A DNA stretch of 64,000 bases from positions 1-64,000 of the IMG/VR virus record IMGVR_UViG_3300036792_000363. One strand, given 5' to 3'. Under the pieces are notes generated by a model. The model made no database searches. It was not told where the DNA came from and was given only the letters and a program-made list of their open reading frames with translations. A program made the position numbers and the translations under genes. Numbering within the stretch: the first letter of the stretch is position 1; each line of letters begins with the position of its first letter. Of the stretch, positions 643 to 60,041 are shown in pieces. This DNA is from a virus.

Positions 643-681
643 GTGCCTGCCCTCTCTCTGGCTCGGATGCCTGGCGCCAGT

Positions 682-3702: not shown

Positions 3703-3751
3703 GATGTGCCTGCCTCTCGCTCGGCTGCCTGGTGCCAGTCTAGGGCAGGTG

Positions 3752-5628: not shown

Positions 5629-6014
5629 GTCCCCGCCGTCTCCCGCGCGGCCAGCCACTCGCGCCACGAGAGGCGGCCGGACACCCGCGCGTACTCCGGG
5701 TACAGCTCCGCGCCCTCGCCGTAGTGCGGGGACGGGTAGTCGTCCTCCGCCAGATGCGGCTCGCCGCGCTTGTCGTCGCCGGCCAGGGTCACCTCGTAGC
5801 CGGCCGCGTACCCGTGATCGAAGCTCAGGGTCATGCCCCACGCGGCCTTGTACATCCCGTCGGGGCCGTCGGAGTAGGCGATGCGCCAGTCCTCGCCCAG
5901 CGTGACCGCCGGGTGCCGGTACGGCTCGATCCGCGTGATGCGGTGCGGGGTGCTCAGGAACCACAGGTCGTCGCCGACGCGGACCTCCTGGCCCTTGACC
6001 TTGATGGTGGTCAC
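5625..6014 (-). CDS. Hypothetical protein (129 aa)
   Basis: GTGA-coupled ORF. Confidence 0.65.
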   Translation of the reverse strand: MTTIKVKGQEVRVGDDLWFLSTPHRITRIEPYRHPAVTLGEDWRIAYSDGPDGMYKAAWGMTLSFDHGYAAGYEVTLAGDDKRGEPHLAEDDYPSPHYGEGAELYPEYARVSGRLSWREWLAARETAGT

Positions 6015-6250
6015 GGCTGCGACCTGTGGACCTGGTGGTGGCGGCCGGTCAGGACCGCGCTAAGTCCGGCCTCGTACTGCTCCAGCACCTCGACCGGCAC
6101 CACGGCGGCGACGGGCTTGCCGTGCTCGTCCGTCAGCCAGGTGCTGCGGTCCTGGTCGCTGGCCCGGTCGATGGCGTCATAGATCTTGTCCTGGCACTCC
6201 TGGGCGCTCAGCCCGAACACGCCCGCCGTCTCGGTTGCGGTGAGAATCAT
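6011..6250 (-). CDS. Phd/YefM antitoxin-like protein without an adjacent toxin
   Basis: Short protein with LTDEHGKPVAAVVPVEVLEQYE resembling the Phd/YefM beta-hairpin-helix. Confidence 0.55.
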   Translation of the reverse strand: MILTATETAGVFGLSAQECQDKIYDAIDRASDQDRSTWLTDEHGKPVAAVVPVEVLEQYEAGLSAVLTGRHHQVHRSQP

Positions 6251-6304
6251 GGTTGCCTGCCTTCTCTCGGTAGCTGCTCTGCTGCGCCGATCCTATTGAA
6301 GTTG

Positions 6305-6320
6305 CTTTACTCGTGTCAAG
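6305..6320 (-). promoter_or_regulatory. Class I promoter/operator, near-consensus TTGACA-N18-TAGGAT
   Basis: CTTTACTCGTGTCAAG; ATCCTA 18 bp to the left. Confidence 0.8.
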
Positions 6321-6330
6321 CTGAACCAGG

Positions 6331-6389
6331 AAAACGCGAAGCCCCGTCGGGAGTTTGGCAGGCATACCGAGCACCGACGGGGCTTCGCG
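6331..6389 (-). terminator. Intrinsic terminator with a 23-nt loop
   Basis: Perfect 16-bp stem 6335-6350/6374-6389 followed by UUUU. Confidence 0.8.
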
Positions 6390-6670
6390 CGAGGGGGAGA
6401 TCGCGTTCGAACACCCCTCGTCTTTCACCCGCCCGCGCGGCAGCTCTGGACCCCCACGCTGACGGGCAGCTATTCAATTATGGGTCCCAGGCCGGCGTTA
6501 CCGCGCCCCCTGGTCCGTAGCAGTGTTGAGCGGTGGCCGCTCTCATGCGTTCGCCAGGTTCGGCGGTCCCGGCCTCCCGGCCTGGGAGGCTCTTGTCCGC
6601 AGGACCGGGCGGGTTCTGCCCCATCCCTCCCGGCGCTTGCGTGCCGGCCGCTTCCGCGGTCCTGCGGGGT
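6331..6670 (-). ncRNA. Putative ~340-nt structured non-coding RNA
   Basis: Bounded by a TTGACA-N18-TACTCT promoter and a 16-bp terminator stem; several internal stems (e.g. perfect 11 bp 6597-6607/6657-6667); no convincing ORF with an RBS. Confidence 0.55.
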
Positions 6671-6691
6671 GATCTCAGAGTATCCGACCAG

Positions 6692-6707
6692 CTTGACTCG
6701 TGTCAAG
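6692..6707 (-). promoter_or_regulatory. Class I promoter/operator driving the putative ncRNA
   Basis: CTTGACTCGTGTCAAG; minus strand TTGACA-N18-TACTCT. Confidence 0.75.
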
Positions 6708-6830
6708 CAAGATCCCGGGATGGATCACCAGTGGGAGAATGGGCTGGCGGCGCGGCGGCCGGAGCCCTCTCGGGGCCGCTTCGGGGGACCTGGCCGCCGC
6801 GCCGACCATCCCCGTCACGGTACCACGTTG

Positions 6831-7412
6831 TCACGTCGCGCGCCTGCGCGAATGCGCCGCGTGACGACGGCCCGCCAGCCTGCGCAGCGCGGGCAGCGGG
6901 GCGGTATCCCGCATCTGCCCGCCGCGCTCGCGCTCCCACGCCAGCGCCAGGCCGTCGCGGGCCCGGCTGGCCAGCTGCGCCACCGCGTTGGGGGTCATGC
7001 CCGCCAGCGCCGCCAGCTCGGCCGGCTCGCGCCCCTCCACCTCGGTCTGCCACAGCACCGCGCGCCAGCGGGGCGGCAGCGAGTCGTAGGCGCGGCCGAT
7101 GACCGCCAGCTCCTCGCGCCGGCCCGCCACCTCGCCGGCGCCGGGCGCCGACCCGCGGCGCTCCGGGTCGGCCACGGGCGTCTCGCGCCAGCGGCCCGCC
7201 TGCCAGTCGCGCGCCAGGTTTCGCACCGCGGCCATCAGGTAGGGCCGGAACTCGCGGGGCCGCCCCAGCCGGGCGGAGGCGGCCAGCACGCGGGCGAACG
7301 CCTCCGCCACGATGTCCTCGGCCGCGCTCGGCGGCACCAGGGCCATGGCGGTGCGCAGCGCGGCGGGCTGGTGCCGCGCCCACAGCGCGGCGTCGGTGTC
7401 CGGCGTTGTCAC
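6831..7412 (-). CDS. ECF-type RNA polymerase sigma factor
   Basis: Region 2 AEDIVAEAF...FRPYLMAAVRNLARDW and region 4 SLPPRWRAVLW...ELAALAGMTPNAVAQLASRARDGL; likely leaderless (TAGCAT-N6-GTG). Confidence 0.9.
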   Translation of the reverse strand: MTTPDTDAALWARHQPAALRTAMALVPPSAAEDIVAEAFARVLAASARLGRPREFRPYLMAAVRNLARDWQAGRWRETPVADPERRGSAPGAGEVAGRREELAVIGRAYDSLPPRWRAVLWQTEVEGREPAELAALAGMTPNAVAQLASRARDGLALAWERERGGQMRDTAPLPALRRLAGRRHAAHSRRRAT

Positions 7413-59645: not shown

Positions 59646-59907
59646 AGCGTCACCTCGTCGTCGATCATCGCGCAGCTGTCGCCGGGCACGTCGTCGCCGT
59701 CCTGTGCTCCACCGTGAAGTAGACGTTGCCGTCGACCCGAACCAGCGCCTCCGGCGGCCACATGGCCGGCATCGGGTCCTGGCCCTCCAGCACGGCGATC
59801 CGGTTGAGGTCGTAGTCGCACAGCACGGCCCCGCACCAGGCGCAGCGCTGGCGCAGGCGGGTGCCCACCTGCACCTTGAGCCCGGCGAAATGCGTGATCG
59901 CGGTCAC
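59642..59907 (-). pseudogene. Small CxxC protein apparently split by a 1-bp deletion near 59702
   Basis: RQRCAWCG frame loses quality after VEH; another frame continues DGDDVPGDSCAMIDDEVTL* and ends in a GTGA overlap with the next gene. Confidence 0.5.
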
Positions 59908-60041
59908 GGCGTCATCGTGCTCCAGACGACGGCGAAGTACACGCCGTAGACGAGCGCGATGCCGACGACCAGCCCGAGGACGATCAGGACGCGGTTCAGC
60001 GCCGCGCTGCGCCTCTGCAGGGTCCCGGGGGCCCGGTGCAT
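59904..60041 (-). CDS. Small membrane protein
   Basis: VLIVLGLVVGIALVYGVYFAVVW. Confidence 0.55.
   Translation of the reverse strand: MHRAPGTLQRRSAALNRVLIVLGLVVGIALVYGVYFAVVWSTMTP

Follow-up and report, generated by a model that had tools for sequence, protein, structure and literature searches.

A predicted structured RNA of a large soil actinophage with a terminator loop complementary to the shared leader of the early messages

A stretch of 340 nucleotides (nt) in the early region of an uncultured phage begins behind a promoter, is rich in stems and lacks a convincing open reading frame (ORF), and this raises the question of what is made from it and on what the product could act. The stretch lies at positions 6,331 to 6,670 of the 64,000-nt DNA analyzed here (the window), which is the first 64 kilobases (kb) of a 124.8-kb IMG/VR virus record (IMGVR_UViG_3300036792_000363). 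The window has a G+C content of 72% and its source is a large uncultured soil actinophage; the early region spans 1–20 kb on the minus strand, the strand which also carries the 340-nt unit. From the comparisons presented here, the locus is best explained as a gene in its own right, whose product is a structured non-coding RNA approximately 340 nt long, the minimal member of a modular family of phage RNAs. The loop of its terminal hairpin is complementary to a leader shared by the early messenger RNAs (mRNAs), and on balance we favor the view that it pairs with this class of messages in trans, as an antisense RNA.

The anatomy of the unit was as a sequence-only reading of the window had described it, read on the minus strand. 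The promoter consists of a TTGACA -35 hexamer (6706–6701), an 18-nt spacer and the -10 hexamer TACTCT (6682–6677), which would place the transcript start at approximately 6666–6671. The -35 hexamer lies within an imperfect palindrome, TTGACAcgAGTCAAG (6692–6706). The stem-rich body of about 340 nt extends down to a U-tract at 6334–6331 and folded with an energy of -190.9 kcal/mol (z = -3.97 versus dinucleotide shuffles). RNA folds and alignment divided it, from the 5' end, into a branched hairpin domain that varies between relatives (6589–6664), a conserved core domain with a long closing stem around CCUGGCGAACGCnUGAG, a variable hairpin and CAACACnGCUACGGACCAG (6484–6588), an A-rich linker, CAUAAUUGAAUAGCUG, with a third hairpin behind it (6428–6483), a fourth hairpin in which GACGAGGGG pairs with CCCCCUCG (6390–6422) and the terminal hairpin (6335–6389). 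The terminal hairpin has the perfect stem of 16 base pairs (bp) that had been claimed for it (6389–6374 with 6350–6335) and a 23-nt loop, UGCUCGGUAUGCCUGCCAAACUC (6351–6373). A GC-rich stem followed by the tail UUUUCC (6329–6334) gives it the features of an intrinsic terminator. It was not picked up by the terminator scan of the window because a loop of 23 nt is far beyond the usual 3–8 nt; ordinary terminators in the window have loops of 7–8 nt.

The predicted targets were found where the sequence-only reading had placed them. Positions 661–673 and 2080–2092 read CAGGCATCCGAGC, with variants near 3720, 12742 and 16795. This 5' leader block, CAGGCAUCCGAGC (661–673, minus strand, with its identical second copy at 2080–2092), forms the first 13 nt of the mRNA as judged by its spacing from the -10 hexamer. 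The second block, GGCAGGCA, occupies the gap that separates the Shine-Dalgarno purines (GAGAGG) from the start codon. Fifteen copies occur on the minus strand of the window, 10 of them 1–4 nt ahead of start codons at which real ORFs begin; these start-associated copies were confined to the early region (1–17 kb), with one at 644–651 (minus strand) and others starting at 2075, 2676, 3714, 4277, 6261, 10521, 12735, 16502 and 16789. In two further cases the motif stands 9 nt from the start, and the earlier count of about a dozen genes holds. Only two copies of GGCAGGCA were found on the plus strand, and one of these is in the RNA loop. A consensus scan of 1–20 kb returned 10 promoter-like sites of the sigma-70 type, all on the minus strand, where 0.5 would be expected. 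Each early promoter has its -35 hexamer within a palindrome, TTGACTnnAGTCAAG, and a TAGACT-like -10 hexamer. In most cases the leader downstream is short, starting with CAGGCAnCCGAGC and ending with (C)GAGAGGCAGGCAC 1–4 nt before the start codon. Within the loop, GCUCGGUAUGCCUG complements the 5' block (13 pairs with one bulge) and UGCCUGCC complements the block at the ribosome site.

Relatives of the locus were sought by two routes, one from the neighboring sigma factor protein and one from a 17-mer conserved in the RNA, and were found in five phage records of 146–152 kb (G001–G005) and in at least three metagenome contigs (L080, L097 and L140), the contigs being found by the 17-mer alone. 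With the window (G000) this gives nine family members. The RNA unit lies directly 3' of the sigma gene in G001–G004 and L080, under the same TTGACAcgAGTCAAG-N-TAnnnT promoter, and the window's 15-mer itself heads the unit in G001–G003 and L080; L097 is cut upstream of the unit. The N18 spacing to the TAnnnT hexamer was kept in every relative. Frames of at least 30 amino acids (aa) do occur within the unit, and as the sequence-only reading had judged, none makes a good ORF. None is conserved: where relatives resemble one another they do so in brief stretches that change frame and occur on either strand, their insertions and deletions are not multiples of three, and the only candidate leaderless frame is broken by a 1-nt indel.

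Seven of the nine members end in a hairpin of the same kind, built on five distinct stem sequences (examples are GAAGCCCCGUCGG, AACGCCCUAGCGG, GAGGCCCCCCGUG and GGAGCCCCGCGGC) with 13–16 uninterrupted pairs each, as counted by script on arms derived from RNAfold, which makes the pairing partly one of construction. The loops measure 20–23 nt; (U/A)UGCCUGCC was present in all seven and CUCGGU just before it in five. Conservation of the loop had been set as a test of the antisense proposal, and the loop core was thus kept in six members besides the window, on stems that change in sequence and stay paired. Such constancy of a large loop on a changing stem is the mark of a loop recognized by its sequence.

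Complementarity to both leader blocks, which the sequence-only reading had asserted for the window, proved specific to the loop and to leaders close to promoters. Exact complements of 8–14 nt join the loops, each carried on a stem of 13–16 bp, with leaders that lie 0.4–17 kb away. The longest exact complement that the loop has in a leader measured, as a median, 8 nt in the window, 10 nt in each of G001, G002 and G003 and 9 nt in G004, versus 5 nt in controls. Complements of at least 9 nt were found in 1 of 11 leaders in the window, 17 of 25 in G001, 19 of 27 in G002, 21 of 24 in G003 and 17 of 27 in G004, and in 0.2–3% of control windows. At a threshold of 8 nt, 9 of the 11 promoter leaders of the window scored, compared with 0.9% of control windows, a share that ranged from 0.9 to 6.7% over the controls as a whole. 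Sense copies of GGCAGGCA numbered 13–36 per early region and antisense copies, TGCCTGCC, 2–6; one of the antisense copies was always the loop. In an unbiased scan of each RNA, only 8-mers of the terminal loop had complements that recurred in three or more leaders.

Variation in the loop followed variation in the leaders in some lineages. G001–G003, L080 and L097 have GGGCAGGCA in their leaders and UGCCUGCCC in their loops. In G004 approximately half of the leaders carry AGGCAGGCA and half GGGCAGGCA, and its loop, UGCCUGCCU, has a U that can pair with both; the 5' block variant CAGGCAACCAA of the same phage is accompanied by the loop UUGGUUGCCUG. The commonest 5' block of the window is CAGGCAUCC, with U instead of A after CAGGCA, and its loop gains an extra A there. 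Loop and leaders covary in part only: in the window, the loop base that faces the A or G in front of GGCAGGCA is itself an A.

Such an RNA could act as follows. It would be transcribed from an early promoter of the host type, and its long, stable end hairpin would serve both as terminator and to display the 23-nt loop. The loop would pair in trans with two sites of the shared early leader, namely the first 13 or so nt, CAGGCAUCCGAGC, and GGCAGGCA. Occupation of GGCAGGCA would keep the 30S subunit off the message, occupation of the 5' end could change its decay, and as the stable RNA accumulated, translation of the whole early class would be damped or shut off. Because the end hairpin displays the exact complement of the leader tag, one RNA probably controls the whole early gene set. 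Repression is the more likely outcome if pairing takes place; the stronger match in the window, however, is to the extreme 5' end of the mRNA, and pairing there could just as well alter mRNA stability. We infer from the sequences that such an RNA is transcribed, binds the leaders and represses. The promoter of the unit is of a less common, asymmetric TTGACA subclass whose palindrome is imperfect, in contrast to the commoner palindromic early promoters, and we speculate that it may escape whatever protein binds the perfect palindromes.

Several observations weigh against an antisense RNA acting on the early class. The ribosome-site match in the window is only 8 nt long and the next base of the loop, an A, cannot pair. 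RNAfold predicted a GGUA–UGCC pairing inside the loop, and with this 4-bp inner helix the mean unpaired probability over the loop was 0.60 rather than 1. Median duplex energies were 4.6–8.5 kcal/mol better than the shuffled-loop mean, a margin which is moderate as high-GC random windows already give strong duplex energies. A single RNA promoter would have to titrate more than 10 mRNA species made from similar promoters. Finally, the RNAs of G005 and L140 lack GCCUGCC altogether, yet the leaders in these members keep (C)AGGGCAGGCA; the ribosome-site tag can therefore exist without the loop. The proposal of a trans-acting antisense RNA thus stood as regards the lack of a conserved ORF, the retention of the loop and the specificity of its match, and was weakened by partial covariation and by the clade to which G005 and L140 belong. 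This sister clade (L009:763-2175 of G005, and L140:1-410) has the same core with no anti-leader loop and with no clear terminator before the next tagged gene, and its version of the RNA in G005, of approximately 1.4 kb, would be very large for a structured phage RNA.

As these two members keep the core without the loop, the body of the RNA must have a role besides carrying the loop, and one may ask whether this is its principal one. The main job of the RNA might then lie in the core and the modular body, through binding of RNA polymerase, the neighboring phage sigma factor or a ribosomal component, or as a scaffold, the loop being a later accessory of some lineages. The core is indeed the most conserved part of the family. 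It was present in all nine members, the loop-less clade included, with predicted helices paired in 99.4% of cells. Four pairs showed changes on both sides, among them the n positions of GCnUGAG/CACnGC, which are G–C in seven members, A–U in the window and C–G in L006 (the G002 locus). The covariation score of the core was 0.157, compared with 0.054 in shuffles (none of 500 reached 0.157) and at most 0.032 with slid partners, and the internal loop strands GAAC and UACGG were invariant. The position behind the sigma gene is likewise conserved, with a gene of the extracytoplasmic function (ECF) type directly upstream in six members. Around this core the unit ranges from 340 nt in the window, the smallest, through 560–960 nt to approximately 1.4 kb in G005, as entire hairpin domains, linked to one another by an A-rich stretch that recurs, are gained or lost; the two strands that form the fourth hairpin in the window close an inserted multi-branch domain in the larger relatives. 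No match to 6S RNA or to any other Rfam family was found, and a role centered on the core would leave unexplained why an invariant loop core matched to the leaders is present in seven members. We regard it as unlikely that the main job of the RNA lies in the core, with the loop as an accessory, though such a role and the antisense function are compatible.

A number of further features of the body were observed. The A-rich linker parts hairpin domains as a single-stranded A(A/C/U)AACU(C/G)(A/C)A(C/G/U)AG in L004, L006, L007, L008, L080, L097 and L009; equivalent linkers of the relatives follow A(A/C)AACUCAACAG and are nearly confined to the RNA, and window positions 6468–6483 are a degenerate equivalent. 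Of the sense copies in early regions of 40–60 kb, those inside the RNA unit were 2 of 2, 1 of 3, 2 of 2, 2 of 2 and 3 of 3, and the linker could be a site for processing or for protein binding. In L004 (5005-5030) and at the equivalent place in L008, a sense copy of the tag, CAGGCAGGCC, is paired with its own complement in a hairpin inside the RNA, which amounts to a self-masked mimic of the tag. G003 has a 46-aa acidic ORF (beginning MYAGEYYADG) with a full leader tag inserted between the RNA promoter and the RNA (L007:11430-11580), which makes the RNA of that phage the 3' portion of a message. Following the terminal hairpin, U-tracts were weak in some relatives.

The family is new to the databases in that it is absent from Rfam. 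At the gathering score, none of the 4227 families of Rfam 15, among them 6S, C4 antisense RNA, tmRNA, riboswitches and GOLLD, ROOL and HEARO, matched in the window or in the eight related loci, nor did any match the 1.4-kb relative; at E ≤ 10, the region 6200–6850 gave only a chance match to a snoRNA of 16 bits. Blastn of the RNA unit against 50,697 cultured phage records returned no match. In G000–G004, the five genomes searched, a covariance model of the core matched once and only once per genome. It gave no match in three actinomycete genomes, nor in a sample of 151 genomes from the family of a Streptomyces metagenome-assembled genome (G006), with only a fraction of the first-look candidates scored. 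A second core pattern gave only chance matches outside the known relatives, and no copy of the RNA in a bacterial genome was among the matches listed in scans of genome collections. We found no publication on this RNA family.

A different role for the loop would be one in cis, in which the loop on read-through transcripts pairs with the leader of the gene immediately downstream and silences these copies of that one gene. Each of the seven loop-bearing members has its next early promoter and tagged leader starting within approximately 5–25 nt of the hairpin. In the window this promoter (TTGACAcgAGTAAAG, with -10 hexamer TAGGAT) lies at 6250–6319 on the minus strand and starts 16 nt past the RNA stem, and its leader ends in GAAGGCAGGCAACC-ATG. 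This leader, however, is without the 5' block, and the loop fits the consensus of all leaders rather than that of the downstream gene. Where other terminators stand ahead of early promoters in the window, their loops are of the ordinary 7–8 nt and lack the motif, and a GC-rich stem of 16 bp with a U-tract should terminate efficiently. Action in cis is accordingly improbable.

It is very improbable, in our view, that the shared motif is a DNA site, read in either orientation by a DNA-binding protein of the phage or its host, with the copy in the loop irrelevant to RNA pairing. Clearly, the early promoters are made to receive a DNA-binding protein: a 14-bp palindrome covers the -35 hexamer, and the 5' block of the leader occupies +1 to +13, where regulators can act. 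A site of this kind would not account for the strand bias of 13–36 sense to 2–6 antisense copies, nor for the presence of the motif at the start codons of genes which lack a promoter of their own (2676 and 16502). In addition, the single antisense copy that is conserved always appears in the loop of a covarying stem, which points to a constraint at the level of RNA or of a single strand.

A small protein encoded by the region, with the hairpin as terminator only, is next to negligible as an explanation: sense-strand ORFs of 48–78 aa do exist, among them a 48-aa ATG frame (6624–6478) and the leaderless frame, but no reading frame is conserved among relatives, the GGAGGG of the ATG at 6624 abuts it without a spacer and none of the frames bears the leader tag of the real early genes. 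Three other candidates were set aside. Mimicry of ribosomal RNA (rRNA) by the loop was ruled out because the 16S rRNAs of two actinomycetes contain no UGCCUGCC. Purely intramolecular pairing of the loop with the 5' end of its own RNA was ruled out in the window, where the RNA contains no CAGGCA; in some relatives such pairing is possible over 6–8 nt. A permuted origin from a transfer RNA (tRNA) or transfer-messenger RNA (tmRNA) was raised by G002 alone, in which a perfect T-arm-like GCGGGUUCGAGUCCCGC near the 5' end is followed by D-arm-like sequence, in permuted order (L006:10700-10760); ARAGORN found no tRNA or tmRNA, and the T-arm-like element is absent from the other members.

An antisense RNA that acts on the early messages would have counterparts in other phages and in bacteria. 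The CI RNA of P4 is a trans-acting antisense RNA of a phage, and Staphylococcus aureus RNAIII is a long riboregulator of many hairpins, cellular in origin, which also encodes a peptide. Like RNAIII, the RNA described here is large and structured and is predicted to direct hairpin loops at the ribosome sites of several mRNAs; RNAIII uses C-rich loops against ordinary Shine-Dalgarno sequences, with no known shared address tag, and has no homology to it. Phage T4 has a translational repressor protein, RegA, and a GGAG-specific endoribonuclease, RegB, and the proposed class-wide post-transcriptional shut-off of early genes through a short ribosome-site sequence would resemble theirs, with the difference that the element of specificity would be an RNA loop and not a protein. 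The host of the phage, a high-GC actinomycete, is not known to have Hfq, unlike the setting in which CI and the similar RNAs c4 and sar operate. Phage antisense RNAs which use loops against a ribosome site include c4 of P1 and P7 and sar of P22, and none from actinophages is given in the 2025 review concerned (PMC12197685). With c4, sar and CI the present RNA has in common that it is encoded by a phage and would act in trans on phage mRNA, and that it displays in a hairpin loop a short stretch complementary to the ribosome-binding region of mRNA encoded elsewhere; as with CI and c4, two separate target blocks would be recognized by one RNA. Those RNAs, however, are of 70–80 nt, act on one operon (ant, or the P4 early operon) and form part of immunity, whereas the predicted targets here are at least 10 separate transcription units in the window and approximately 25 in relatives, and the RNA is of 340–1400 nt with a conserved core and no sequence or structure match in Rfam. 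The fold also departs from that of 6S and Ms1-like RNAs, being multi-domain and not a single bubble-bearing hairpin.

In appearance, the early tag is closest to the start-associated sequence (SAS) and extended SAS promoters of Cluster K mycobacteriophages, in which a motif stands 3–9 nt before the starts of 11–19 non-structural genes (PMC3203893, PMC11373665, PMC12699233). The role of SAS was still called unknown in 2024–25, and Pope et al. (2011) left its partner open as 'RNA or protein' (PMC3203893, PMC11373665, PMC12699233). Both motifs are asymmetric, longer than a Shine-Dalgarno sequence and placed in one orientation a few nt before the starts of non-structural genes, often behind an inverted-repeat element that contains the promoter, and each has one lone copy in the opposite orientation; in the window the counts were 15 sense and 2 antisense, with palindromic promoters upstream. 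The sequences differ, SAS being GGGATAGGAGCCC and the motif here GGCAGGCA within (C)GAGAGGCAGGCAC with the 5' block CAGGCAnCCGAG, and no 13-bp SAS motif with up to two deviations was found before start codons here. The phages, of approximately 150 kb, are unrelated. The early tag is hence an analogue of SAS and not a member. No partner of SAS has been published, whereas here a candidate RNA partner is evident from the sequence. The RNA thus resembles the c4 type in its predicted mode of working and SAS in its look, and with a different motif and no Rfam match it belongs to neither.

A parallel in Cluster K was observed, and it is suggestive only. The single reverse-orientation SAS of phage Anaya (JF704106), GGCCTCCTATCCC, is at record position 59,870 in the unannotated gap between gp96 and gp97, on the mRNA strand (L290:39760-40000, record 59,759-59,999). 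RNAfold placed CCUCCUAUCC in a 10-nt loop of a GCGCGG/CCGCGC hairpin, preceded by another, strong hairpin and by a TAGACT that is conserved. Matches to the region were found in 178 Cluster K records, with at least 80% of the query covered in 156, and it was unannotated in most of 25 records among the matches listed. The hairpin was kept in six further phages. In Unicorn the homologous loop has diverged and the SAS consensus has not, and there is consequently no covariation in Cluster K.

The surroundings of the RNA unit add the following. Upstream on the minus strand lies the gene for the ECF-type sigma factor (6831–7412; Pfam Sigma70_r2 and r4_2). The gene just downstream in several members encodes a 79-aa protein (6011–6250, minus strand, in the window) with a weak Phd/YefM antitoxin-like match (Pfam E = 0.008) that is below the Pfam cut-off. 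Across positions 1–20500 of the window (minus strand) and the early regions of G001–G005 there are approximately 16–27 early-strand promoters per phage with the -35 hexamer in a 14-bp palindrome, TTGACTnnAGTCAA, compared with 0–1 matches for a reversed-pattern control; G005 uses the half-site variant AGTCAGG throughout.

The phage antisense RNAs known to us each control one gene or operon, and class-wide shut-off of early messages is known to us solely through proteins. Antisense control in phages gains a new variant in the regulatory logic predicted here, and an RNA that recognizes a shared tag on 10–25 separate early transcripts would, if borne out, be a new and programmable way to time a phage program. 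It would also provide a concrete type of candidate partner for the start-associated sequences of actinobacteriophages. More tentatively, and with rather less confidence than we attach to the pairing itself, large phages may possess an RNA address system, in which every early message has a tag at its 5' end and at its ribosome site and the terminator loop of one RNA displays the anti-tag and switches the class; the actinophage RNA would then combine the part of a master riboregulator with a further function located in its conserved core, and the start-associated sequences of other actinophages would be accounted for in the same way. The family itself is a new large structured phage RNA, absent from Rfam and 340–1400 nt long, with exchangeable domains around an invariant core, and the copy in the window, being the smallest, is the best starting point for experiments.

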